DNA of 62,958 nucleotides from a virus (lineage: Duplodnaviria; Caudoviricetes): IMG/VR virus record IMGVR_UViG_3300044648_000169, positions 1 to 62,958 of that record, one strand, 5' to 3'. Of the stretch, positions 2,941 through 61,523 are shown piece after piece; the stretch's first letter is position 1, and each line of letters starts with the position of its first letter. The translations under genes were made by a program, and so were the position numbers. Below the pieces are notes generated by a model. That model made no database searches. It had not been told where the DNA came from and saw only the letters and a program-made list of their open reading frames with translations.

Positions 2941-3793
2941 TGCTCGCCTCCCCCTCGCTGCCGGCATGGCGAATGCCGAGCCATGCTGCATTCAGCTTTG
3001 ACTCAAGGTGGGCGCGCATACGGGCAAGACCCTCTTGGTTCATATGCCCCTCGCCTACGATGTCCCCGATGATCGACAACAGTTCGTTGTAGTCCGCCAA
3101 CCCCTCCCCCGCTCCACGCTGTGCCTGCCCTGCGGCCTCCACAACACCATCAATGGCCGCTACCGCCCCGCGCCGTGCTCGCCCGTCAGCGACGGGCCCC
3201 AGAAGCGCCTCACGAGCTTGGAACAGTGCTTTGTACCCACCGGCGGGAAGGGCGCCCCACTGCTTGTTGTCGCGGGCCCAGCGGAGCAGAGCGTTCACAT
3301 TGAGGGGCTGCCCTGCGGCTTGCTGGGGGGTGGCAACGCAACGACCTTCAATCTCGCAAGACATTGCATCCGGGCACGTTCCGTGAACCGAGCACTTCGG
3401 CCCCACCGCCTCGGCTTGCGCCCGCTGTGCTGGGGGATGGGAGGCTGCGACTTCGCGCCCCTTCCGGTCAGAGGCGATGAACTTGGCCGCCGCCCGGTAG
3501 CAGGCATTCCAGCCGTCGCGCCAGTCAGGTGGCACATGGGATGCGTCCGGGTGGAACGGCGCGAACTCGTTGCCGACCTTCCAATCCTGCCCCGCCGCTG
3601 GCTCATCGGGGGCGGGCTGAATGGTGCAGTACCGATAGTCCGTGTCGCGGCAGGCGCCTGGGGTGTCGCAGCGGTCGCAATACTTGCGTGGCGCCCCTTG
3701 AGCGGGCTCGGGGGCGGGCTGGGCGCGGAGGGCGGCAGGGGCCTGCTGTCTCGCGTGCTTAAAAAGCGCCTTCAATTGCTCGTTGATGCTCAC
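2933..3793 (-). CDS. hypothetical mosaic phage protein
   Basis: GTG start coupled to the upstream stop; Cys clusters, DGWNAC motif. Confidence 0.6.
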   Translation of the reverse strand: MSINEQLKALFKHARQQAPAALRAQPAPEPAQGAPRKYCDRCDTPGACRDTDYRYCTIQPAPDEPAAGQDWKVGNEFAPFHPDASHVPPDWRDGWNACYRAAAKFIASDRKGREVAASHPPAQRAQAEAVGPKCSVHGTCPDAMSCEIEGRCVATPQQAAGQPLNVNALLRWARDNKQWGALPAGGYKALFQAREALLGPVADGRARRGAVAAIDGVVEAAGQAQRGAGEGLADYNELLSIIGDIVGEGHMNQEGLARMRAHLESKLNAAWLGIRHAGSEGEASNG

Positions 3794-12260: not shown

Positions 12261-12532
12261 GCCTGCCCCTTGAACCACCCCGGCACACAGGCGCCGCGGG
12301 CATCAGCGTCAGCCTGGAAGCCGACAGTGCATTCAGAACAGGGGTTGACCGACCGGCACCGGGCTAGGCGCTGAGCCTCCACGCGGTTGGCCATTGCCTC
12401 GGCCGCCACGCCCGACAGATACGTGATCCAAGAGGTCTTGTTCATGCAGGGAGGGACCGATTGATTGAGTTGGTCGAGGACCAATGCCCACCGGGCAGGC
12501 CTCGCGTTTGCCACACCGAGTCGTGAGCCCAC
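12257..12532 (-). CDS. small Cys-containing phage protein
   Basis: VPPC...WITYL...PCSECT...GACVP; start uncertain. Confidence 0.5.
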   Translation of the reverse strand: MGSRLGVANARPARWALVLDQLNQSVPPCMNKTSWITYLSGVAAEAMANRVEAQRLARCRSVNPCSECTVGFQADADARGACVPGWFKGQA

Positions 12533-12533
12533 A

Positions 12534-12914
12534 TCAGCGCCCACCCATCGAGGGCGGATTCCCACCCAACAGCGAGCCAACACGCCGAATACGATCCGCA
12601 TTCGAGTTGGCCATCGCGTCGCTACCCCAGGCCACGCACTCCACCAACGTCCTAACAAACTCAGTGAGGGACATGCCATGACTGGCCGCGATCGCGTTAA
12701 CCACTGCCTTGGTCTCACTGTGAAGCGGGATGCGGCTCAGCTCATCGTCAAATTTCCCGCCGGGGGCCGTCCTCCCGCTCCGACTGAAAAGCGCATTGCC
12801 CCCGTTGAGGAATGGGCCGCCGAGTCCGTTCGACGTGTCTGGATCAAGGCCGCCAAGGCCGGCGCGGTCGAACTCCTGCTCGTTGCACGCGGTTTGATCT
12901 GATGCGGTCACCAT
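12534..12914 (-). CDS. CII-position regulator, RHH-like
   Basis: Follows cro; RIPLHSETKAVVNAIAASHGMSLTEFVR. Confidence 0.55.
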   Translation of the reverse strand: MVTASDQTACNEQEFDRAGLGGLDPDTSNGLGGPFLNGGNALFSRSGRTAPGGKFDDELSRIPLHSETKAVVNAIAASHGMSLTEFVRTLVECVAWGSDAMANSNADRIRRVGSLLGGNPPSMGGR

Positions 12915-13030
12915 GCCGCCCTCCCGTTGAAAACACGGGCCTGGACCCGAAGGCCCAGGCCGCGCAAAGCCGCCTCGAGAGCGGCAGGGAGGAGTCGCAC
13001 GAAGAAACCGGGGAATTGGATGGGGCGCAT

Positions 13031-50479: not shown

Positions 50480-51550
50480 ATGGACGTTGACGCACCCAGC
50501 CCAGATCCCGCGATCGGCGAGGCCTCAAAGGAGAGCATCCAGCTTGCACGCGACCAGTTCGCGGCCCAGCAAGCCCTGCTGCAGGAGTTCAAGCCGCTCT
50601 ACATGGACCAGATCGCCCTGGCCCAGAAGCAGCAAGAAACCAACCTCGCGCGCTCCGACCAGGCCTGGAACGACTACCAGACCACCTTCCGACCGCTCGA
50701 GCAGAAGATGGCTTCGACGGTGGCCGGGTACGACACCCAGGACCGCCGCGACCAGGCCGCGAACGAAGCGATGGGAGGCGTGGCCTCGACCTTCGACACC
50801 GCGCGCCAGGGCCTGACCGAAAGCCTGCAAGCTCAAAGTGCTGCTGGCAGTGGCCGCGGGCTGGCGATGGGCAACGTGCTGGCGATCGAGGAAGCCAAGG
50901 CCAAGGCTGGCGCGGGCAACACCGCCCGGCGCAATGTCGAAGCGACGGGCCTGAGCCTGCTGGGCTCGGCGACGAACTTCGGCCGGGGCCTGACCAACAC
51001 CGGCTTGCAGACGGGCCAGGCCGCCAATGCGAACGGCCAGGGCGTGATGGGCGGGGTGTCGGGGCTGTCGGGCCTGACTGGCGCCGGCTACTCGCAGGCG
51101 CTGCAGGGCTACGGGGTCGGCATCAACGGCCTGCTCGGGCAGTACCAGGCCAGCAACCAATCCACCGGCCAGCAGAACGCCATCTTCGGCGACATCCTGG
51201 GTGCCGGGATGATGGCCTACGGCATGTCGTCCAAGGACTTCAAGGAGACGGACGGCAACAAGGTCAGTGGCAAGAAGGCGCTCGACGGCCTGGCCGCGCT
51301 CGACATTGAGCACTGGACCTACAAGCCCGGCATGGGTGACGGCAAAGCGCACATCGGCGGTTACGCCGAGGACGTGAACCGCGAGTTCGGCGACAAGGCC
51401 GCACCTGGCGGCAAGGTGATCGACATGCAGCGCATGGGCCGCATCAACGCCCAGGCGATCACCGAGTTGGCCAAGGTGATGGACGACCTGGAAGCCGCCG
51501 CTTCCGCAATCGAGAAGCGCCACGGCGCCAAGGGGCGCAAGCATGCCTAA
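50480..51550 (+). CDS. internal virion/ejection protein with S74-chaperone-like C-terminus
   Basis: APSPDPAIG; SSKDFKE...WTYK...HIGGYAED. Confidence 0.7.
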   Translation: MDVDAPSPDPAIGEASKESIQLARDQFAAQQALLQEFKPLYMDQIALAQKQQETNLARSDQAWNDYQTTFRPLEQKMASTVAGYDTQDRRDQAANEAMGGVASTFDTARQGLTESLQAQSAAGSGRGLAMGNVLAIEEAKAKAGAGNTARRNVEATGLSLLGSATNFGRGLTNTGLQTGQAANANGQGVMGGVSGLSGLTGAGYSQALQGYGVGINGLLGQYQASNQSTGQQNAIFGDILGAGMMAYGMSSKDFKETDGNKVSGKKALDGLAALDIEHWTYKPGMGDGKAHIGGYAEDVNREFGDKAAPGGKVIDMQRMGRINAQAITELAKVMDDLEAAASAIEKRHGAKGRKHA

Positions 51551-52307
51551 CGCATGGGACAAGTTTTTCGGCAAGCAGTGGGACCAGAACAAGAAGTGGG
51601 ACCCGCTCACGCACGGCCTGCTGGAGGCGGTGGTCAAGCAGGACTCGCACAACATCGCGGCGATCGACCACGGCATCAGCAAGATGTTCGGCGGCGACGG
51701 CTCGACGGTGCTGGGCGATGAGGCCCGCAAGGTGGAGAACGACCCCAAGCGAGGGGTAGGCCGGGCGGCGCTGGTGGCTGGTGCCATCTACGGTGCCGGC
51801 GCCATGGCGGGCAGCGGCGCCGGGGGTGCTGGCGCTGGCACGGGGGCGGGCGCAGGAGCCGGCGGCGCTGGTGCCGGTAGCTCAGGCATTGGCTCGGCCG
51901 GCGCCAGTGGCGCGACCAACGGGGCCTTGATCGACAGCTACCTGGGCACCACCGGCTACGGGGCCAGTTCGGCTGGCGCGGGGGGTGGCGCTGGTGGCGC
52001 GGCCGGCTTCGACTGGACCAAGATGGGCCAGCAGATGCAGGGCATGGGCGACGACGGCCAGGGTGGTGGTGCGGACGACATCACCCAGGTGGACCTCGCC
52101 GCGCTGGCCATGCAGGAGGAAATGCGCCGGCGCGAGCTGGACGCGATGGCCACCAGCAGCAAGAAGGCGAAGACGCCCGGCGGCGGATTGGCGGACCTGT
52201 CCGACCCCATCGACCACACCGGCGCACAGATCGCCGCGATCAAACACCTGGCGGAACGCGCTTCCGCGCTGCGCACGCGCCTGGCTGCGCTCAAGAAAGG
52301 GAAGTGA
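51543..52307 (+). CDS. Gly-rich ejection protein
   Basis: Gly/Ala-rich hydrophobic core; position in the ejection cluster. Confidence 0.6.
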   Translation: MPNAWDKFFGKQWDQNKKWDPLTHGLLEAVVKQDSHNIAAIDHGISKMFGGDGSTVLGDEARKVENDPKRGVGRAALVAGAIYGAGAMAGSGAGGAGAGTGAGAGAGGAGAGSSGIGSAGASGATNGALIDSYLGTTGYGASSAGAGGGAGGAAGFDWTKMGQQMQGMGDDGQGGGADDITQVDLAALAMQEEMRRRELDAMATSSKKAKTPGGGLADLSDPIDHTGAQIAAIKHLAERASALRTRLAALKKGK

Positions 52308-52308
52308 C

Positions 52309-53481
52309 ATGGCACAGCAAGGACTCGGCCTGATGCAGGCCTTGGGCGCCTACCAGCAGGGCCGCGCGTGGCGCGACAACCAGCAGCAGGTGACCCGGCA
52401 GCAGGACCAACTGGCCGAACAGAAGGCCCGCGAGGACAAGATCAAGGCGGCGAACCAGGCCGCGATCGGCTACCTCGATGAAGCCAAGAAGGCGCACGAC
52501 GCCGAGCAGGCCAAAGCCCTCGAAGAGTGGACCCGCACCAAGGGCTCGGGCGAGGGGTTCCAGGCCAAGCCCTGGCAGACCAACGACGCGGTGATGTTCC
52601 GTGCTGCGGCGGCCCGCGGCGACGCGCTGCTGCAGGGCGGGCTGTTCGACGAGTACGCCAAGAACCGGGCAGCCATCATCCCCATGCAGATGCAGGCCCG
52701 CCGGGCGGCCTGGGAGAAGTTCCAGACGGATGGAGACCACGGCGAACTGGGACGCGCCTTCTACGACACGGTGCCCAACGGCCGGCACGTCAAGGCCTAC
52801 GACGTGGCCGAGGCCCCGGGCCCGGACGGCAAGACCAAGGGCAAGAAGCTGCGCTTTCACATGGACGACGGCACCGTGCAGTTCATGGCGCCCGAGCAGG
52901 TGGAGGCCCTGGCCAAGCGGGCAATGACCGACCCGCAGAAGGTCATGGAGAACGAGTTCGCGCTGGACCTGTGGAAGGCCAAGGAGAAGGTGCGCGCCGA
53001 GGGTGACAAGGACGTCAACGCCCACAAGCACGGTCTGTCGATGCTCGAGATTCAGGAGCGCAACAAGGGCACGCAGGCCGTGGCCGAGACACGATCCGAA
53101 GCCACCACCGAGGCGGCCAAGATTCGCGCCAGCGCGAAGGGCAGCAGCGGCAGTGGCGGTGGCAGCAAGGGCTCCAACGTCCAGAGCGTGCAGACCGACA
53201 AGGACGGCTACAAGGTCATCGTCTTCCGCGACGGCACCACCAAGCCGATGAGCATGAACGGCAAGCCAGTGCGCGCGCAGGACTGGTCCAAGCGGGTGGA
53301 CAAGCTCGCCAAGGATTTGGGCAGCACCCTGGGTGGCTTCAAAAAGTCGCCCGAGGAACTGCGCGCCCAGGCCGAGACGATGCTGGCCGGCGAAGCCGCG
53401 CCCACCGAAGACGCCAAGCCGGCCGAAACGCCGAAGCCCACCAACAAGCCGGGCGTGAAGTTCCTCGGCTTCGAGAAGTGA
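52309..53481 (+). CDS. ejection protein
   Basis: MAQQGLG start; helical 390 aa. Confidence 0.65.
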   Translation: MAQQGLGLMQALGAYQQGRAWRDNQQQVTRQQDQLAEQKAREDKIKAANQAAIGYLDEAKKAHDAEQAKALEEWTRTKGSGEGFQAKPWQTNDAVMFRAAAARGDALLQGGLFDEYAKNRAAIIPMQMQARRAAWEKFQTDGDHGELGRAFYDTVPNGRHVKAYDVAEAPGPDGKTKGKKLRFHMDDGTVQFMAPEQVEALAKRAMTDPQKVMENEFALDLWKAKEKVRAEGDKDVNAHKHGLSMLEIQERNKGTQAVAETRSEATTEAAKIRASAKGSSGSGGGSKGSNVQSVQTDKDGYKVIVFRDGTTKPMSMNGKPVRAQDWSKRVDKLAKDLGSTLGGFKKSPEELRAQAETMLAGEAAPTEDAKPAETPKPTNKPGVKFLGFEK

Positions 53482-53484
53482 CCC

Positions 53485-56400
53485 ATGCCGATTGCACGCT
53501 TTGAACTGCCAGACGGTCGCATCGGCCGCTTCGAGGTGCCGGACGGCACGAGCGAGGACGATGCGATCTCCCTGATACAGCAGCACCTGGCCGACAACCC
53601 GGTGGCAGACAAGGCCGCGCGCCCGCTGCCCGAAGGCGTGACGCCATCGGATGCCGGCGCCGGCCGCGGCAGCGTGCGCCCGCACGGCCCGACGCTGCGT
53701 GAACGGCTGTTCGATCCCAGCGTGCGAACCGCCCCGCAGCCTGTCCAGCGCCGCGGCGGCACGCGGTCGGAGGCTCGGCCGTTCGTGGCCACCGGGCGCG
53801 ACACCACGGCAGCCGAAGTAGGCGAGGCCATCGGCGGAACCCTGGCCGGCACAGCGGCCCTGGGCATGGAGAAGGGCCTGGGGGTCATGCTGGACCTGCA
53901 GAACAGCGAAGGCCGCGAGCCCGAGGCGCCGCCGCTGGACAACGCGCTGGAAGAACCGCCCGCCTACCCGCCGAACCAGCAGGAGGCGATTGCCCGGCAG
54001 AGCCTGCGCCCGGAAGTTGCCCAGCGCCGAGCGCGCGAGGCCAGCGCGCCGGCCGAGGCCCGGCCGTTCTCCACCGGCCAGAACATGGCCACCGACGTGC
54101 GCGAGGCCACGCAGAACCCGGTGGCGCGCGGCGTCGCGCAGGGCATTGGAACCATCGGCAAGGTGGGCCCGGGCGCACTGCGCATTGCGGCCGACTTCCT
54201 CGGCTCTGAGGGTCTGGGCGACCTGGCCAAGGCATCCGGCCGCGCCGCGGATGAGTTCTCCGGTGGCGTCACCAGCGATCTCAAGGGCAACGACAAGCTG
54301 GTGGCGCAGATCACCGGCTCCATCGTCAACTCGGCGCCTTCGCTCGCGCTGGGCGTGGTCGGCGGCCCGGCCCTCAAGACCCTCTTTGTCCAGTCCGCCC
54401 TGTCGGAATACAACGCCGGCCGCGATGCCGGGTTCGCGCCGGAAGAATCTCTGATGCGGGCCGGCATCATGGGCTTCGCCGAGGCCATCGGCGAACGCGC
54501 GGGCTTCCCTGAGCAGATCAAGCTGCTGAAGTCCCTGGCCAAGCACGTGCCCACCGATCGCCTATCGAAGGTCTTCGGCGACATGCTGGCCAAGGAGATC
54601 CCGGGCGAACAGTTGACCACCGCCCTGCAATTCATGGCGGACAAGGCGGGCCCGGCGGCGCTGAGCCCGGACGCCACGCTGGCCGACTACCTGGACCAGG
54701 CCGGCGAGACCCTGAAGGTCACCATCGGCCAGACGGCGGTGATGGGCGGCGGCCCGGCGGCGGTCGGCACCACGCGCAACGCGCTGCGCAAGGCGGACGC
54801 CGGTGCCACGTCGGCCGCGCCAGACCCCGCGGTGATCCTGGCCAGCGCCATCGACCAGGCCGCCAACGACTTCGGCCTGAGCCCCAAGGCCACCGCCGCG
54901 CTGCGGGACAAGGCCAACACCATGCCCGCCGAACAGGCCGCGGGCTTCGTGGAGCGCGCGCTGGCCGAGTTCGAGCGCGGCAACCTGGTGCGCAAGCCCG
55001 GCGCGGCGGCCGGCTTCAAGCAGACCCTGAACGACCTGGCCGAGAAGGCGCAGGCCGAAGCCGAGTCCCAACCGGCCGAGCCGGAAGCAGCGCCCGCGCC
55101 CGAAGCCGCACCAGAGCAAACGCGCTTCGACGCTGGCGCCATGCTGGAAGGCGACGACTTCAGCGGACTGGACACCCCGGCGCAAGCCGGCCCGGCAATG
55201 ACCGCCCCGGGTTCAAGTGCGGTCGAAGAAGGAAGCCCCGATGCAGAAGTAGAAGCCATTGATTCGTCGTCGACAGCGGCGCAGGTAGGAGTGCCTGCGT
55301 CGCCCATCGAAGGCGAGCCCATCAATCGCAACTGGTCGGCTTTCACACCCGAATCCGGCAGCCTTGGCATTCCCAGGGAGCAGATGCCCCAGGTGAAGGC
55401 TGAGCACCGAGGCGCGCTCACCAACTTCCTGAACGCCCGCGGCATCACACACGAATCCGGCGAGGTGCCGGCGCATGTGCTGCGCCCGACGCAAGCCGAG
55501 TTCTCGCCCCGCAAGGTCGAGCAGGCCGCCGACTTCACCGGCGGCAACCGGGCCGTGCTGGTGAGCAAGGACGGTTTCATCATCGACGGCACCCACCAGT
55601 GGGCGGCCGCCCGCGAGGCCGGCGCGGCGATCAAGGTGATCCGCTTCGACGCCCCCATTCAAGACCTGCTGCGCCTGGCCCAGCAGTTCCCCAGTTCGTT
55701 CTCATCGGGAGGTGCCAGCCGTGCTGGAAGTGGACCTGGATATGCCGAGCCTGCCGGACCTGCTGGAGCAGGGGCTGCTGACCCAGATGCAGGCGGACGA
55801 ACTGAACCACTGGTTCAAGGCGAGCTGCAACAGCCGGTACCCGCTGGAACTGCCGGAACCCCTGTACCGGGCCCTGCTGTACGCGACGGCGCTGGCGCAG
55901 ATGGACCTGGAGCGGGAAACGATGCACTGACGGTCGGCGCCGCGGTGGAGTTGGGCGGCAAGCCCTACACCGTCAAGGCCAAGAGCCCGAAGGTCATCCG
56001 CCTGACTGGCGAGGACGGCAAGGTCCGGGTCATCAGCAGCGACTCGGCCAACTGGTCGAAGATCAAGCCAGCGACTGCGAAGCCAGCAGCCCCCACCGAA
56101 GAATTCGCCGGCAAGCATGGCGAAGGCATGGCCGAGCACGTCGCCAAGGCCAACGCCATCCGCCTGCGCAAGGAGCGCCCGGACCTTGAATGGACCGTGG
56201 CCGAAGCCGACCCCGCCCGTAACCCCAAACTGAAAGCCGACCGCTATGTCGTTCAGGGCCGCCCGCTTCAACCCCAAGCCCCGGCAGCAGAAGCAGGAGC
56301 GCAGGCGGGAGGCGTGGAGCCGGCAGGATCAGCAGGAGAGGCCGCTGCCGCTTCCGGATCCGCCCAGGTGGAAGCCGATGGGCTGAGGGCGCAGCCGGCG

Positions 56401-59400
56401 CGCAAGACCCCGACCACCGCCCGCAGCAAGGCCCCGAAGGCGAAGAAGGCGCGCAAGGTCATGGACTCCTGGGTGCTGGGCGAGATCGTCCACCGACTGG
56501 GCGGCATCGGGCTGGGCCTGCGGGCGGACCTGTCCAGCAAGGCGCTGCGCGAGCGCACCAACAAGACAACCGGCAAGGTGACCCAGTACACCGCCTGGCG
56601 CGGCGACGGCATGCTGTTCCGCGCCACCGGATCGACCGACCTGACCGAGATTGCGCAGGTGCTGGAAGAGGCCGGGTTCCTGGAGCCCGGGCTGGTGGAG
56701 CGTGACTACCTCGAGGCCACCAGCCGGGTGCAGGACATCATCAAGGCCGAGATCGCCAAGCCCGGCAGCACGCAGGCATTCGGTGCGATCGAGGACCAGG
56801 CGCGCCAGCGCGATGAAGACGCCCGAGCCGAGCACGAGGAACGCGAACAAGCCGAACTGGACGAGTGGCTGCACGGCGAACTCGACATTCAGGCCGCCAA
56901 CCTCCCCGCCGAACCGGAGGCGCACAATACCGCCCTGGAACTGGCCCGCCTTCTGAACGAAGCGGCCGAAGCCGGCGTTGACGTCGACTCACTGAAGGAC
57001 GACTTCTTTGCATCGTCCGATCCCGAATGGAGCCAGGAAGCCTATGACACCCGCCTTGCCCAAACTCTCCGTGACGCTGCCGCCCGAACTCGTGTCGAAG
57101 CTCGACGCGATGACACCGGAACTGCGCGAGCAGACGATCCAGTCAGCCGCCCGGCTGGCGTCGATCAAACTCGGGCGCCGGGTGACGGGGCAAATGGACC
57201 TGACGATGCCATTCGATCCGAAGAAGAAGCCCGCCCAGGGCTGACCCTCGCCGCCGAGACCCCGGCCGACGCTCAGGCCAAGGCCGCCCGCGAAGCCGAA
57301 GCCCTCGCCTCAGAGCGGAAGGCCAAAGACGCCGAGCAGGCGCGGCTGAAGAAGGAAGCCGACGAGCGCGAGGTGCGCGCCCGGGCGGATTCCAGCGTCG
57401 ATGACTTCCAGCTCGGGCAGAGCGCGGATCAGCAGTTGTCGGGGCAGCGGGACATTTTCAGCGCCTCGCCGCCACCCAAGCGCCAAACCAAGGTCACGCC
57501 GCAGGTCCCCAGCGCCAGCCAACTCGCTTCCTTCATTGGCATCGCCGCGGACTCGGCGCAGGCGCTGCGGCGCTCGGATGTTGAACGCGTCTTGCGCGAG
57601 GCGCCGGTGCACTTCCGCGTCGGGCTCGCAGCCCACATCCAAGCCAGGCGGCCGGATCTCACTGACGAGGTGGACGAGGTGCTGGCGGAACTGAACCAAG
57701 CACCGCCGCAAATGAAGCGCGGCACCAGCGCCGGCCTGCCCCTGGCCACCGCCCGCAAGACCATCGCCGCCTTTGAGGCCCAGGGTGTGCGCAAGGTCAA
57801 CCTCGCCGCCACCCTGGCCGACATGCCCCAGGCCCGGCGCGACGCCATCCTGGCGACCGACCCGAGCGGCCGGGTGCGCGGCGCGTACTTCCCTAGCGCC
57901 GATGAGGTGTGGGTGATCGCCGAGAACCTGGGCAGCGAGCGCGAGCTGGTCGACGTGGTGCTGCACGAGTCCTTCCACCGCGGCCTGCACGTCACCTTCG
58001 GCGCCGATGGCGCCAAGCTGCTGCGGCAAATCTACGCCACCAACAAGAGCGTGCGCGTGCTGGCCGACAAGCAGATGGAGCGCTTCGGCCTGAGCAAGGA
58101 AGAGGCGACCAACGAAGCCTTGGCAGACTTGGCCATGACCAACCAGGTGCAGAACCTGAACGGCTGGACCCGGCTGCTGCGCATGATCCAGGCCTGGCTC
58201 GGCAAGATCGGCCAGGCGCTGGGGATCGAGTTGAAGTTCACCGACAAGATGGTGGTGGACCTGATCGCCGGGATGACGCGTGCGGGCCTGCAGCCGAACG
58301 TGGCGCCGGCGCCCGACACCAGCAAGCAGGACCGGGCCGCCGCCATCAGCGAGCAGGTGGCTGAGGGCAAGAGCTTTGCGGAGGCCACCAGCGAGGTGGC
58401 GTTGAGCCGCAAACCCAGCTACACCCCCGAGCAGAAGGCCGCCCTGGGCAAAGCCGGCGTGTCCGGTCCCGTGTCCCTGAAGGGCAAGCTGCAGCGCCAC
58501 TACAGCGCGGCGATGAACCTGCTGGCCGACCGGCACGCGCTGGCGGCCGAAGCGCAGCAGGGCCTGCTGGACCAGTTCACCGGCATCAAGCGTGCCGTGC
58601 AGCGCGACGTGGGCAACCTGCCGGTGGAGCAAGACCCCTACGTGGCGGCCCGGCTCGCCAACGGCGGCGCCTCTTCGGTGATGCGCGCCCTGCTGCTGCA
58701 CGGCCAGGCGAAGTGGGCGGCCAACGGCCAGCACCTCGAGAAGATCGACGGCACCAAGGGCCTGCTGGACATCCTCGCCCCGCTGGGCGACGACCTGAAC
58801 GACTGGTTCGGCTGGATGATCGGCAACCGCGCCGCGCGCCTGATGGGCGAGGGCCGGGAAAACAACTTCACCCCTGCCGACATCAAGGCGCTGCGGTCCC
58901 TGGCCACGCCAGCGAAGAAGGCGGCATTCCAGAAGGCGGCCCTGCAGTACGCCGCCTTCAAGCGCTCGGTGCTCGACGTGGCCCAGGACGCAGGCCTCAT
59001 CAACGCTGAGGCGCGCAAGGCCTGGGACTACGCCGACTACATCCCCTTCTATCGCCAGATCGACGAGAAGTCGACCTTCAGCCCCACCGGGCGCAAGGGC
59101 CTGGCCGGGCAGTCGTCGGGCATCCGCTCGCTCAAGGGTGGCGAGAACGCGCTGAACGACCCGATGGAGAACCTGCTGATGAACTTCAGCCGGTTGATCG
59201 ACGCCAGCCTGAAGAACAACGCCTTGCGCAAGACCGTCGACACCCTGAAGGCGGCCAAGTCCGACGCGGTGGTGAAGATCGGCTACGACATGACGTCGCA
59301 ACTGATCCCGGCCGAGCAGGTGAAGCAGCGGCTGGTGGAGGCGGGAACGCCGCAGCAGATCCTGGACGTGATCCCGCCCGAGGCCTTCGACGGCATGGCC

Positions 59401-61083
59401 AAGATGTGGGCGGTGCAGGCTCCGAGCGACCCGGACGTGATCCGCCTCATGGTCGACGGCAAACCACAGTTCTACCGGGTGGAAGACCCCCTGCTGCTGA
59501 AGGCGCTGACCAGCTTTGTGCCGTTCGACTTCCCCGGCCTTGGAATGATGCGGTGGTTCAAGCGCCTGCTGACCAGCACGGTCACGGCGGCCCCGGACTT
59601 CGTGGCCCGCAACTTCATCCGGGACACGGTGGCGGCGCAGATGATCACCCGCGACGGGTTCAACCCGGGCAAGTCGCTGCAGGGGGTGGCCAAGTCCCTG
59701 CGCGAGAGCGGCGGGTTCGAGCACATGCTGTTCGCCGGCGCGAGCTTCCAAAGCGGCAATGTCAACGCGGCCGACCCAACCGGGACCGGCCGAGCCATCC
59801 GGCGGGCGCTGCGGAAGAAGGGCTTTGACGCCTCGTCCGTCGACGCATTCACGGGCTCGGTCATCGACACCGGCCTGAAATTCTGGGAGAAGTACCGGCA
59901 CTTCAGCGAGGCGATCGAGAACGCCAACCGCGAAGCGGTGTTCGATGCAGCAACCAAGGGCGGCAAGACCGTCACGGCGGCGGCCTTCGAGTCCAAAGAC
60001 CTTATGGATTTCTCGCTGCGCGGCTCGTGGGCGGCCTACCAGATCCTCGCCGACGTGGTGCCGTTCCTGAACGCCCGCGTGCAAGGCCTGTACCGCCTGG
60101 GGCGCTCCGATCCCAAGCGCGTGGTGGTGCTGGGCCTGCTGATGACCGCGGCCACCCTGGCGCTGGCGTGGGCCAACGACGGCAACGACGAGTACGAGGG
60201 CCTGGCAGACTGGGACAAGGACACCTACTGGCACTTCTGGATCGGCGGCGAGCACTTCCGCTTGCCGAAGCCGTTCGAGCTGGGCGTGGTCTTCGCCACC
60301 ATCCCCGAGCGGGTGATGCGCTTCGCGCGTGGCCAGGACGGCGGCGGCAAGACCGCCGGCCGGCTGTGGGCCAACGTGCGCGACCAGTTTGCCTTCGACC
60401 CGGTGCCGCAGATGATCCGCCCGTGGATGAACGTGTGGGCCAACAAGGACACCTTCCGCGGAACCCCCATCGAGGGCATGGCCGACGAAGGCAAGCCGCC
60501 GCACCTGCGTTACTCGGCCAGCACCTCAGAAACCACCCGGGAACTGCTGGACCTGACCAAGCCGGTCACCGACCCGCTGGCCCTGAGCCCGAAGAAGCTG
60601 GAGTACCTGGTGAACGCCTACACCGGCGCCGCCGGCTTCTACGCCCTGGCCCTGTCCGACATTGCCGTACGCGCCATGACCGACGCCCCGCCGCAGCCCG
60701 AGATGCGCGCCGACGACATCCCTGTGGTCAAGGCCTTCTACCGGGTCAACCCGGCACGTGGCACGGTTTGGGAGAGCGACCTGTACGACATGCGCGCGGC
60801 GGCCGAGGAAATCTACCGCGGGGTCAAGGCGCTGGAGCGCGAGGGTGACCTGGAGCGCGCCACCGAACTGACCGAGGACAACTTGGACAAGCTCGGCGCC
60901 CGCACGGTGCTAGACGAGGCCGGCAAGCGCCTGGCGGGGATCAACAAGCAGCGCGACAAAATCTACCGCGACCCGGACATGAGCCCGGCCGAGAAGCGCC
61001 AGCAGCTCGATGAACTGCTGAAGCTCAAAGCCGAGATCGCGCGCAACGCGGTGGAGCACCCGGCCGTGACCGAGGCCTTCTGA
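53485..61083 (+). CDS. large polyvalent internal virion protein (ParB-like, HExxH metallopeptidase-like, C-terminal LPD38-like)
   Basis: LRPTQAEF...IIDGTHQW; VLHESFH; PFLNARVQG...WDKDTYW...LPKPFELG. Confidence 0.85.
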   Translation: MPIARFELPDGRIGRFEVPDGTSEDDAISLIQQHLADNPVADKAARPLPEGVTPSDAGAGRGSVRPHGPTLRERLFDPSVRTAPQPVQRRGGTRSEARPFVATGRDTTAAEVGEAIGGTLAGTAALGMEKGLGVMLDLQNSEGREPEAPPLDNALEEPPAYPPNQQEAIARQSLRPEVAQRRAREASAPAEARPFSTGQNMATDVREATQNPVARGVAQGIGTIGKVGPGALRIAADFLGSEGLGDLAKASGRAADEFSGGVTSDLKGNDKLVAQITGSIVNSAPSLALGVVGGPALKTLFVQSALSEYNAGRDAGFAPEESLMRAGIMGFAEAIGERAGFPEQIKLLKSLAKHVPTDRLSKVFGDMLAKEIPGEQLTTALQFMADKAGPAALSPDATLADYLDQAGETLKVTIGQTAVMGGGPAAVGTTRNALRKADAGATSAAPDPAVILASAIDQAANDFGLSPKATAALRDKANTMPAEQAAGFVERALAEFERGNLVRKPGAAAGFKQTLNDLAEKAQAEAESQPAEPEAAPAPEAAPEQTRFDAGAMLEGDDFSGLDTPAQAGPAMTAPGSSAVEEGSPDAEVEAIDSSSTAAQVGVPASPIEGEPINRNWSAFTPESGSLGIPREQMPQVKAEHRGALTNFLNARGITHESGEVPAHVLRPTQAEFSPRKVEQAADFTGGNRAVLVSKDGFIIDGTHQWAAAREAGAAIKVIRFDAPIQDLLRLAQQFPSSFSSGGASRAGSGPGYAEPAGPAGAGAADPDAGGRTEPLVQGELQQPVPAGTAGTPVPGPAVRDGAGADGPGAGNDALTVGAAVELGGKPYTVKAKSPKVIRLTGEDGKVRVISSDSANWSKIKPATAKPAAPTEEFAGKHGEGMAEHVAKANAIRLRKERPDLEWTVAEADPARNPKLKADRYVVQGRPLQPQAPAAEAGAQAGGVEPAGSAGEAAAASGSAQVEADGLRAQPARKTPTTARSKAPKAKKARKVMDSWVLGEIVHRLGGIGLGLRADLSSKALRERTNKTTGKVTQYTAWRGDGMLFRATGSTDLTEIAQVLEEAGFLEPGLVERDYLEATSRVQDIIKAEIAKPGSTQAFGAIEDQARQRDEDARAEHEEREQAELDEWLHGELDIQAANLPAEPEAHNTALELARLLNEAAEAGVDVDSLKDDFFASSDPEWSQEAYDTRLAQTLRDAAARTRVEARRDDTGTARADDPVSRPAGVDQTRAPGDGANGPDDAIRSEEEARPGLTLAAETPADAQAKAAREAEALASERKAKDAEQARLKKEADEREVRARADSSVDDFQLGQSADQQLSGQRDIFSASPPPKRQTKVTPQVPSASQLASFIGIAADSAQALRRSDVERVLREAPVHFRVGLAAHIQARRPDLTDEVDEVLAELNQAPPQMKRGTSAGLPLATARKTIAAFEAQGVRKVNLAATLADMPQARRDAILATDPSGRVRGAYFPSADEVWVIAENLGSERELVDVVLHESFHRGLHVTFGADGAKLLRQIYATNKSVRVLADKQMERFGLSKEEATNEALADLAMTNQVQNLNGWTRLLRMIQAWLGKIGQALGIELKFTDKMVVDLIAGMTRAGLQPNVAPAPDTSKQDRAAAISEQVAEGKSFAEATSEVALSRKPSYTPEQKAALGKAGVSGPVSLKGKLQRHYSAAMNLLADRHALAAEAQQGLLDQFTGIKRAVQRDVGNLPVEQDPYVAARLANGGASSVMRALLLHGQAKWAANGQHLEKIDGTKGLLDILAPLGDDLNDWFGWMIGNRAARLMGEGRENNFTPADIKALRSLATPAKKAAFQKAALQYAAFKRSVLDVAQDAGLINAEARKAWDYADYIPFYRQIDEKSTFSPTGRKGLAGQSSGIRSLKGGENALNDPMENLLMNFSRLIDASLKNNALRKTVDTLKAAKSDAVVKIGYDMTSQLIPAEQVKQRLVEAGTPQQILDVIPPEAFDGMAKMWAVQAPSDPDVIRLMVDGKPQFYRVEDPLLLKALTSFVPFDFPGLGMMRWFKRLLTSTVTAAPDFVARNFIRDTVAAQMITRDGFNPGKSLQGVAKSLRESGGFEHMLFAGASFQSGNVNAADPTGTGRAIRRALRKKGFDASSVDAFTGSVIDTGLKFWEKYRHFSEAIENANREAVFDAATKGGKTVTAAAFESKDLMDFSLRGSWAAYQILADVVPFLNARVQGLYRLGRSDPKRVVVLGLLMTAATLALAWANDGNDEYEGLADWDKDTYWHFWIGGEHFRLPKPFELGVVFATIPERVMRFARGQDGGGKTAGRLWANVRDQFAFDPVPQMIRPWMNVWANKDTFRGTPIEGMADEGKPPHLRYSASTSETTRELLDLTKPVTDPLALSPKKLEYLVNAYTGAAGFYALALSDIAVRAMTDAPPQPEMRADDIPVVKAFYRVNPARGTVWESDLYDMRAAAEEIYRGVKALEREGDLERATELTEDNLDKLGARTVLDEAGKRLAGINKQRDKIYRDPDMSPAEKRQQLDELLKLKAEIARNAVEHPAVTEAF
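55721..55930 (+). CDS. overprinted small protein 1 (+1 frame)
   Basis: GGAGG-8nt-GTG; about 63/69 codons end in G/C by manual count. Confidence 0.6.
   Translation: MLEVDLDMPSLPDLLEQGLLTQMQADELNHWFKASCNSRYPLELPEPLYRALLYATALAQMDLERETMH
56246..56386 (+). CDS. overprinted Arg/Gln-rich peptide 2 (+1 frame)
   Basis: MSFRAARFNPKPRQQKQERRREAWSRQ...; GC3 bias shifts to this frame; weak RBS. Confidence 0.35.
   Translation: MSFRAARFNPKPRQQKQERRREAWSRQDQQERPLPLPDPPRWKPMG
57044..57244 (+). CDS. overprinted small protein 3 (+1 frame)
   Basis: AGGAAG RBS; MTPALPKLSVTLPPELVSKLDAM...; GC3 bias in this frame. Confidence 0.5.
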   Translation: MTPALPKLSVTLPPELVSKLDAMTPELREQTIQSAARLASIKLGRRVTGQMDLTMPFDPKKKPAQG

Positions 61084-61093
61084 TCCTGGAATG

Positions 61094-61128
61094 AAAAAGC
61101 CGCCTCAGCTTTCGCGGGGCGGCTTGTT
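61094..61128. terminator. bidirectional terminator
   Basis: aaaaagccgcc...ggcggcttgtt. Confidence 0.7.
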
Positions 61129-61202
61129 CTGGAGCGGGAACCGAGTTCACACACCAGTCTTTCCACGGACAGGTGAAGGCTAACAGCCCCGGCCCTCTGT
61201 GG

Positions 61203-61421
61203 TCAAGCCAGCCGCTGGACCAGGAAGGTCACGAAGACCGCCGCGGCGCCGAGTCCACCCAGGATCATCAGCGCCGCGGTGAACCGCTCTTCTGCTGCCG
61301 GCGTGATGCCGTTGAACAGGCGGTAGGCGAGGTACATCAGCAGCAGCCCGGCCGGGAGGCCCGGCGTCGCCAGCAGCAGCAGCCCAACCACCATCAGCAC
61401 CAGGCACAGAAGCGATCGCAT
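61203..61421 (-). CDS. small multi-TM membrane protein (moron-like)
   Basis: 72 aa, almost entirely hydrophobic; lies next to attP. Confidence 0.6.
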   Translation of the reverse strand: MRSLLCLVLMVVGLLLLATPGLPAGLLLMYLAYRLFNGITPAAEERFTAALMILGGLGAAAVFVTFLVQRLA

Positions 61422-61523
61422 GCGGCCGATTGTGGGCCCGCCAGCGCGCGCACTTGCACGCCTCGCGTGGGTGTGAATGCGCCCTGCCCGCGGGTATAGT
61501 GCGGCGTTCGGGGGGATAGAGAA

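Follow-up and report, generated by a model that had tools for sequence, protein, structure and literature searches.

Probable small protein genes in the +1 frame of interdomain spacers of a giant DarB-like phage gene

The window analyzed here, a 62,958-nt stretch of DNA from a virus of the Caudoviricetes (Duplodnaviria; IMG/VR record IMGVR_UViG_3300044648_000169, positions 1 to 62,958), carries on its plus strand a giant gene at 53485–61083, whose frame-0 open reading frame (ORF) encodes a polyvalent, DarB-like virion protein of 2532 amino acids (aa). The Pfam family PF18857 (LPD38) matched aa 2235–2415 of this protein (60187–60729, plus strand; E 5.1e-46, 157.6 bits against a cutoff of 27), and this match, which exceeds the Pfam cutoff and lies in a large protein of several domains, identifies the gene as that of a phage polyvalent protein with LPD38. 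A ParB-like domain of the DdrB-ParB type lies at aa 596–741 (55270–55707, plus strand), where it was matched by phrog_11358 (E 2e-34), by phrog_2859 and, weakly, by phrog_8071; in tblastn searches it was 54–61% identical to the giant genes of F116-like and Bcep22-like phages. Other regions of the giant protein matched further phrogs. The subject of this report is a set of three small ORFs, O1 (55721–55930), O2 (56246–56386) and O3 (57044–57244), each lying wholly within the giant gene, on the same strand and in its +1 frame, just as an initial annotation of the sequence had placed them. As was also described there, O1 follows the ParB-like domain directly. We refer to the frame of the giant gene as the host frame and to that of the small ORFs as the nested frame.

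We analyzed the base composition of the giant gene by codon position. Over the whole gene the GC contents of positions 1, 2 and 3 were 0.71, 0.49 and 0.86. At 55705–55944 the GC content of the host third position (GC3) dropped to 0.30–0.50, and that of host position 1, which is position 3 of the +1 frame, rose to 0.88–0.93. A similar but weaker shift was found at 56185–56424 and 57025–57324. Thus, the initial annotation's observation that the third-position bias moves to the nested frame was borne out by a frame-specific GC check, most strongly at O1 and less so at O2 and O3. Its description of the surroundings as low-complexity linkers also agreed with our data: the host-frame peptides over the nested ORFs consist to 85–89% of small, polar or charged residues (G, A, P, S, T, D, E, R, Q and N), versus 69% in the whole protein.

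For codon usage, we derived a log-odds score from 26 further genes of the window and used it to rank the small ORFs among 85 out-of-frame ORFs of at least 40 codons found within 28 genes. O1 ranked first, with a score of 1.10 in the nested frame and -0.95 in the host frame, the mean of real genes being 0.92; O3 ranked fourth and O2 fifth. The ORFs in second and third place overlap others that lie in a different frame and are probably mis-called gene starts. When the 7.6-kb gene was scanned in sliding windows, we found four segments in which another frame outscores the host frame, three of them being O1, O2 and O3, and only these three are stop-free stretches of the giant ORF with native codon usage in another frame. 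The fourth segment (55165–55314), in the linker before the ParB-like domain, has a weak +1 codon signal and three stops; it may reflect composition only or be a decayed remnant.

O1 encodes a putative acidic protein of 69 aa, and the host frame over it is a spacer rich in G, A and P. An AlphaFold2 (AF2) model of the product has three helices (pLDDT 78), and GC by nested codon position is 0.72/0.33/0.91. The ORF-finding program gave 55712 (GTG) as the first start, but the GTG at 55721 agrees better with alignments of homologues. A Shine-Dalgarno (SD) sequence, GGGAGG (55707–55712, plus strand), stands 8 nt ahead of this GTG; a strong SD core precedes just 17 of the 364 off-frame ATG or GTG codons in genes of the window. 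The initial annotation had seen clear ribosome-binding sites in two of the three ORFs, and this holds for O1, whereas the site of O3 misses the strict pattern and that of O2 is weak. A word-based protein search found 14 homologues of O1 in 5 clusters, 68–72 aa long and 54–62% identical, with a conserved start and stop and hardly any variation in the C-terminal 40 residues. Homologues of 65–72 aa were also found in three metagenome contigs (L002, L003 and L004), and in 3 of 3 the ORF was nested in the +1 frame of a host ORF that stays open to the contig ends. A purine-rich, SD-like run precedes the O1 start in the window and in these three contigs, as well as in a contig from a public sequencing run (X3). 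Phage records searched by tblastn, a locus scan of viral contigs and a Foldseek search of the PDB at E≤0.001 gave no match to O1. A 148-aa protein from a 558-nt contig (P0021) was the sole longer protein with an O1-like part, followed by a stretch with a junk-like, off-frame look; we considered it as an in-frame fusion of O1 and rejected it as probably a broken short contig.

Next, we asked in which frame O1 is under selection. NG86 estimates of dN/dS are uninformative here because the method is unsuited to overlapping frames, and a permutation test was therefore used, in which the observed substitutions were re-placed randomly within their codon-position and base class and amino-acid similarity was scored in each frame. 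In 6 of 6 pairs of O1 sequences the nested frame scored well above expectation (z 2.95–5.23, p≤0.001), as opposed to z 0.25–1.88 in the host frame. Control blocks in folded domains gave the reverse picture in 4 of 4 cases, with host-frame z of 2.6–4.8 and no significant signal in the other frames; in the ParB-like domain the test showed the host frame to be under selection. O1 keeps its frame, start, SD-like motif and stop over a nucleotide divergence of 30–38%, and random re-placement of its substitutions created a stop in the nested frame in 55–91% of trials. These sequence comparisons are strong evidence that O1 is likely a real gene under purifying selection at the amino-acid level, and that the host frame at this place is not.

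The boundaries of the conserved segment coincide with those of the small ORF. Nucleotide identity was 0.62–0.90 within O1 and 0.20–0.43 in the 60 nt past its stop in 6 of 6 pairs. Upstream of the start it was 0.10–0.53, the only exception being the window and L002 (0.60–0.83), which have the ParB-like domain in common. The match to the X3 contig starts at 55722 and is preceded there by unrelated sequence that carries GGGAG. Because it is at the start and stop codons that the homology breaks off, we take O1 itself to be the conserved, movable unit.

O3 would encode a protein of 66 aa with two helices in its AF2 model (pLDDT 79) and a conserved C-terminal G-Q-x-D-L-T-x-x-F. Upstream of its ATG are the SD-like motifs GGAG and AGGAAG (57029–57040, plus strand), and the ATG at 57044 agrees better with alignments of homologues than the program's first start at 57008 (TTG). 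An exhaustive profile-free search of 1.84 billion representatives returned three homologues (E 3e-4 to 5e-4, 61–90 aa), which align from residue 1 (Met1) and share the C-terminal motif. Compared with X3, the 15 listed differences in O3 fell 9/3/3 on host codon positions 1, 2 and 3; 7 of them are silent when read in the nested frame, versus 1 when read in the host frame, and several of those that change the nested protein are conservative. The adjoining domain, which is coded in the host frame only, had 20 listed differences with X3 at positions 6/3/11, 11 of them silent in the host frame. When O1 and O3 were pooled, 2 of 19 differences were silent in the host frame versus 12 of 21 in the host-only parts (Fisher p 0.003). 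These data make a good case, at the level of sequence, for O3 being a genuine gene. Searches of phage records by tblastn, a word-based protein search and locus scans of viral and genome contigs gave no match to O3. From its N-terminal LSVTLPPEL we also considered a ribbon-helix-helix regulator, but no such family in Pfam, NCBIfam or PHROGs matched at E thresholds of 0.1 to 1, the homologues do not share the strand-like motif, and Foldseek found nothing in the PDB at E≤0.001; this reading was rejected.

O2, which would encode a very basic protein of 46 aa, is a probable gene and the weakest of the three. Its nested GC3 is 0.93, in keeping with native codon usage, an in-frame stop lies 4 codons upstream of its start, and the homologous ORFs in L002 and L004 have AAGGAG 7 nt ahead of an ATG. 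Compared with L004, L002 also has an inserted module at about 1460–1880 with an acetyltransferase-like look, flanked by a repeated linker motif, V-E/Q-A-D-G-x-K-P-T; these flanking repeats suggest joints for domain shuffling. Considered by itself, O2 has an about even chance of being a genuine gene. The initial annotation's view that the three ORFs are hidden protein-coding genes and not chance ORFs thus found strong support at O1 and good support at O3, but weak support at O2.

Several observations weigh against taking the three ORFs as genes. For O1, the nested-frame protein was used to guide the alignment, the six pairs share four sequences and hence are not independent, NG86 pN/pS was about 1 in all three frames, and substitutions are evenly spread over the three codon positions. 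The E-values of the O3 homologues are borderline, and the classes of differences from X3 rest on 40 of 78 differences. At O2, the SD in the window is weak, the permutation test was marginal in the nested frame (z 1.7–2.0, p 0.025–0.046; host z 0.7–0.8), and the 3' end overlaps a linker motif of the host frame (V-E/Q-A-D-G) that is found again at a border of the L002 module. None of the three matched a family in Pfam, PHROGs or NCBIfam, and the ESM Atlas gave no usable match. No RNA runs carrying the stretch were listed, and RNA is in any case unable to tell the frames apart. With these points on the scale, we still consider it likely that the giant DarB-like/LPD38 gene carries genuine small protein genes in its +1 frame, namely O1 and O3 and probably also O2.

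Could the ORFs instead be a by-product of composition, open by chance because G/A/P-rich linkers are naturally open in +1? Stops are rare in this frame because the linkers lack T at codon position 2, and the related frame of ordinary genes is without stops in 45% of 70-codon windows. The explanation may apply to O2, since a conserved junction motif of the host frame forms its 3' end. An ordinary linker of this genome, however, would have G/C-ending codons, which is not what the host GC3 at O1 shows; nor does composition account for the high codon ranks of the three ORFs, for the independent protein homologues of the same length at O1 and O3, for selection that is specific to one frame, or for cassette borders that fall on start and stop codons. 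This very unlikely explanation is already contradicted for O1 and O3.

The initial annotation had named compensating sequencing frameshifts as one of the findings that would overturn it, the true protein then using the +1 frame in these stretches. We compared contigs of four public runs over 55600–57300. One from an independent study (X2) was identical to the window over its 4 pieces with 0 gaps, and in two more distant ones (X3 and X4) every indel was of 3 nt. The same arrangement recurs in three other assemblies. Moreover, every nested ORF has its own start, an in-frame stop 4–27 codons upstream and a stop at its end, and the nested peptides do not continue the flanking domains. In favor of such frameshifts, a true frame break does exist in a relative, at the gp59/gp60 border of phage F116. 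Taken together, the nested ORFs are not compensating assembly frameshifts, and we give that explanation practically no weight. In the F116 record itself (L007, NC_006552.1), gp59 and gp60 are two parts of a divided giant gene, and at about 12500–12949 the methyltransferase (methylase) domain with which gp59 ends runs on in +1 (NPPF motif), this continuation having no start of its own. The break is either a true frameshift or a record error, and is unlike the nested-gene pattern.

The embedded +1 arrangement was also found in L001 to L004 and in the phages Bcep22, JC1 and Gerry. L001, the one relative among viral contigs, has a lower GC content and is 61% identical in the ParB-like part. Its giant gene contains three nested +1 ORFs with SDs, at 2381–2614, 2753–2959 and 3395–3553. 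The third occupies the site equivalent to that of O1, after the ParB-like domain, has AAGGAG 6 nt ahead of its ATG and matches phrog_2423 (E 1.1e-19, profile positions 1–44 of 52); the first matches phrog_1294 weakly (E 6e-5). By tblastn, the phrog_2423 ORF of L001 matched 311 phage records. One PB1-like record was inspected, that of the Pbunavirus Ab28, in which the phrog_2423 protein is a stand-alone gene product, gp35, 68 aa long and annotated as a 'virion protein', beside a head-morphogenesis gene. O1, O2 and O3 were considered as members of the same family, but only the L001 ORF matched the profile.

In Bcep22, two unannotated +1 ORFs lie in gp75. The larger, of 107 aa (L008 13466–13789; NC_005262.3 52337–52660), has AAGGAGG 9 nt ahead of its ATG and a GC3 of 0.90 versus 0.44 in the host frame. 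The smaller, of 54 aa (L008 11687–11851; NC_005262.3 50558–50719), has AGGAGG 6 nt ahead of its ATG and was found only in 8 Burkholderia records. The 107-aa ORF was found by tblastn in 41 phage records, 10 of Burkholderia and 31 of Ralstonia phages, the latter with 36–39% identity. Each of the 40 matches listed corresponded to a single annotated feature, 23 named as DarB-like or multidomain and 17 as 'hypothetical protein'; the +1 frame, the SD and the ATG were confirmed in the three records checked, those of Bcep22, JC1 and Gerry. Permutation tests among these three gave nested-frame z of 2.5, 7.0 and 4.8 and host-frame z of 2.5, 2.1 and 1.1, so that between Bcep22 and JC1 the host frame scored as high as the nested one, a point that counts against our interpretation. 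These results indicate that nested small genes in giant polyvalent genes are a general, recurrent pattern.

The initial annotation had called the small ORFs overprinted. Our data point to the opposite polarity, since the nested frames hold native codon usage and are under selection and the host frame looks off-frame. We propose that each small gene would be translated from its own start on a late mRNA, O1 with a clear Shine-Dalgarno sequence. A ribosome on the giant ORF would read the same DNA one base earlier and make a spacer between domains that is rich in G, A, P, D and R and probably disordered. The small gene would then be the primary, selected reading, and the host frame need only stay open. 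It would do so readily because host position 1 is the G/C-rich position 3 of the small gene and stops, which begin with T, are rare; in the 26 reference genes there were 1.08 stops per 100 codons in the frame that stands to the gene as host to nested ORF, versus 2.90 in the other frame, which fits with all the cases found being in +1. As far as sequence can tell, the spacer looks to be under little amino-acid constraint in the host frame, and it is the linker that would overprint the gene. Native codon usage and selection in the nested frames, and the stand-alone state of phrog_2423, are our reasons for taking the linker as the secondary, read-through frame. The small genes appear to behave as gene-sized cassettes of SD, ORF and stop found in different polyvalent genes. 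They may have arisen through a read-through fusion of neighboring genes or through insertion of a cassette into a tolerant linker, a direction of events that we infer.

Alternatively, the nested ORFs might be fossils, engulfed as domain genes fused into one ORF and retaining a codon signature after translation and use were lost. The nested frames do look ancestral by codon usage, phrog_2423 is otherwise stand-alone, O2 no longer has a clear SD in the window, and translation of the nested ORFs is something we infer. But O1 retains its start, SD-like motif and stop and has conservative replacements, under a load of substitutions that would usually break the frame if placed at random. The 107-aa ORF is still recognizable at its low identity in Ralstonia phages with SD and ATG kept. 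Furthermore, in a genome with an overall GC3 of 0.86, A and T have remained frequent at the host third positions both in O1 and in the three relatives from metagenomes (GC of 0.32–0.40 at nested position 2). We therefore regard loss of function as unlikely.

Another possibility is programmed +1 frameshifting, by which ribosomes on the giant ORF would slip and yield shortened forms of the polyvalent protein that end in an O1, O2 or O3 tail. Shifts into +1 can be promoted by an SD within a gene, prfB being an example. Ahead of the O1 start, three loci have 14–27 codons of open +1 frame, and in L003 this frame is open as far as the contig start. We saw neither a slippery site nor a stop-codon shift site between the SD and the GTG of O1 when the sequence was read by eye, the +1 sequence upstream of O1 is not conserved, and at O2 a stop lies 4 codons upstream. 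In addition, the database homologues begin at the same Met and phrog_2423 is free-standing elsewhere. Slippage is highly improbable, even more so than an origin in composition alone.

If the nested ORFs are genes, what might their products do? The initial annotation had proposed that each is the immunity protein, chaperone or regulator of the folded domain upstream and travels with it. O1 does follow the ParB-like domain in both the window and L002, L001 has a different nested gene at this site, and the Bcep22 nested ORFs also lie around the ParB-like domain region. The proposal fails for O1, which has unrelated sequence upstream in L003, L004 and X3 and four different sequences downstream; because the flanks differ between loci, O1 is not tied to one domain. 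The same site also holds unrelated small genes in different phages. A cognate partnership of this kind is thus improbable, a little more so than the loss of function considered above. Co-transcription with the giant gene and the annotation of the one phrog_2423 member lead us to a different guess, and a tentative one, that the products of the small genes may be small late or virion-associated accessory proteins acting with the ejected polyvalent protein.

The neighbors of the giant gene encode virion and internal-virion proteins and an acyltransferase, with an integrase downstream, and the order of the virion genes and the acyltransferase gene is that found ahead of gp75 in Bcep22 (gp67–gp75 region), where gp75 is the giant gene for 'DarB-like antirestriction'. 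In the related phage JC1 the giant protein is made and packaged, with 51 unique peptides reported from mass spectrometry (PMC9144972). The giant protein of the window also contains the motif LHESFH (H-E-x-x-H; approximate coordinates 57500–57560), which resembles that of zinc metallopeptidases and agrees with the processing-peptidase (MPTase) domain of polyvalent proteins described by Iyer et al.; L001 has a weak Zn_peptidase match at the equivalent place. Immediately before the giant gene, the first listed start of the ORF at 51985–53481 makes it run for about 320 nt over the gene at 51543–52307, in a different frame. By its score the shared part looks off-frame, and the true start is probably near 52310. 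Rfam gave 0 matches over 53000–61500, and a scan of genome contigs using the host segment gave no match.

The closest known arrangement of a comparable kind is that of the Rz/Rz1 spanins, in which the small o-spanin gene, complete and with its own start, is embedded wholly in the i-spanin gene on the same strand, in +1, in a phage late operon. Bcep22-like phages themselves have an embedded Rz1 (PMC9144972, PMC10269572). Unlike Rz/Rz1, here several unrelated small genes are found per host gene, and only in interdomain spacers; it is the small gene that has native codon usage, the host frame is little constrained, and the unit recurs in differing host-gene contexts. De novo genes overprinted in viruses likewise have two coding frames on the same strand, one of them atypical and probably disordered. 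Codon usage serves as a rule for telling the older frame of an overlapping pair. By this rule and by family distribution, the novel frame here would be the segment of the large gene and the short ORF would be the older, the reverse of de novo overprinting; the arrangement looks like the capture or read-through of an existing gene and not the birth of a new small one. Viral overprinting is treated in the review PMC8227390 and in PMC3494269. The giant gene is otherwise like known polyvalent proteins of phages (Iyer et al. 2017) such as the DarB-like gp75 of Bcep22 in its LPD38, its ParB-like domain and the order of neighboring genes, and the phrog_2423 family joins the nested ORF of L001 to the Ab28 gp35 protein, whose gene, unlike that of L001, is free-standing.

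The literature searched contained no description of genes nested in giant polyvalent, LPD38 or DarB-like genes, supplements and the paper of Gill et al. 2011 on Bcep22 lying outside this search. The main text of PMC5512222 does not contain the words 'overlapping', 'frameshift' or 'linker', and its passages with 'embedded' and 'reading frame' are on other matters; in the available parts of the papers on JC1 and CSP3, Rz1 is the only gene described as embedded. The feature, embedded overlapping genes with the polarity reversed, is real and recurrent and is undescribed in the literature searched. Because gene finders forbid nested genes, these conserved small phage proteins are missing from the records examined, those of well-studied phages such as Bcep22, JC1 and DC1 among them.

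These results point to what looks like the reverse of classical overprinting, in which a giant gene reads through pre-existing small genes and their off-frame reading serves as a flexible linker. They suggest a route by which polyvalent genes may grow by fusion while the genes in between are kept, and they account for the arrangement always being +1 in high-GC phages. A bolder and rather doubtful extension would be that the interdomain spacers of giant, ejected DarB-like genes harbor a hidden, mobile class of small genes, whose cassettes would fit inside the giant ORF without breaking it, stops in the host frame being prevented by the G/C-rich third positions of the small genes. In the phage records examined, 40 listed matches in Burkholderia and Ralstonia phages plus L001, these cassettes are without annotation. 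They may encode accessory factors needed by DarB-type systems; in P1 the factors are DarA, DdrA, Hdf and Ulx, of which the JC1 paper (PMC9144972) appears to report no homologues. Because they are co-transcribed with it, the small proteins are candidate partners of the ejected anti-restriction protein.

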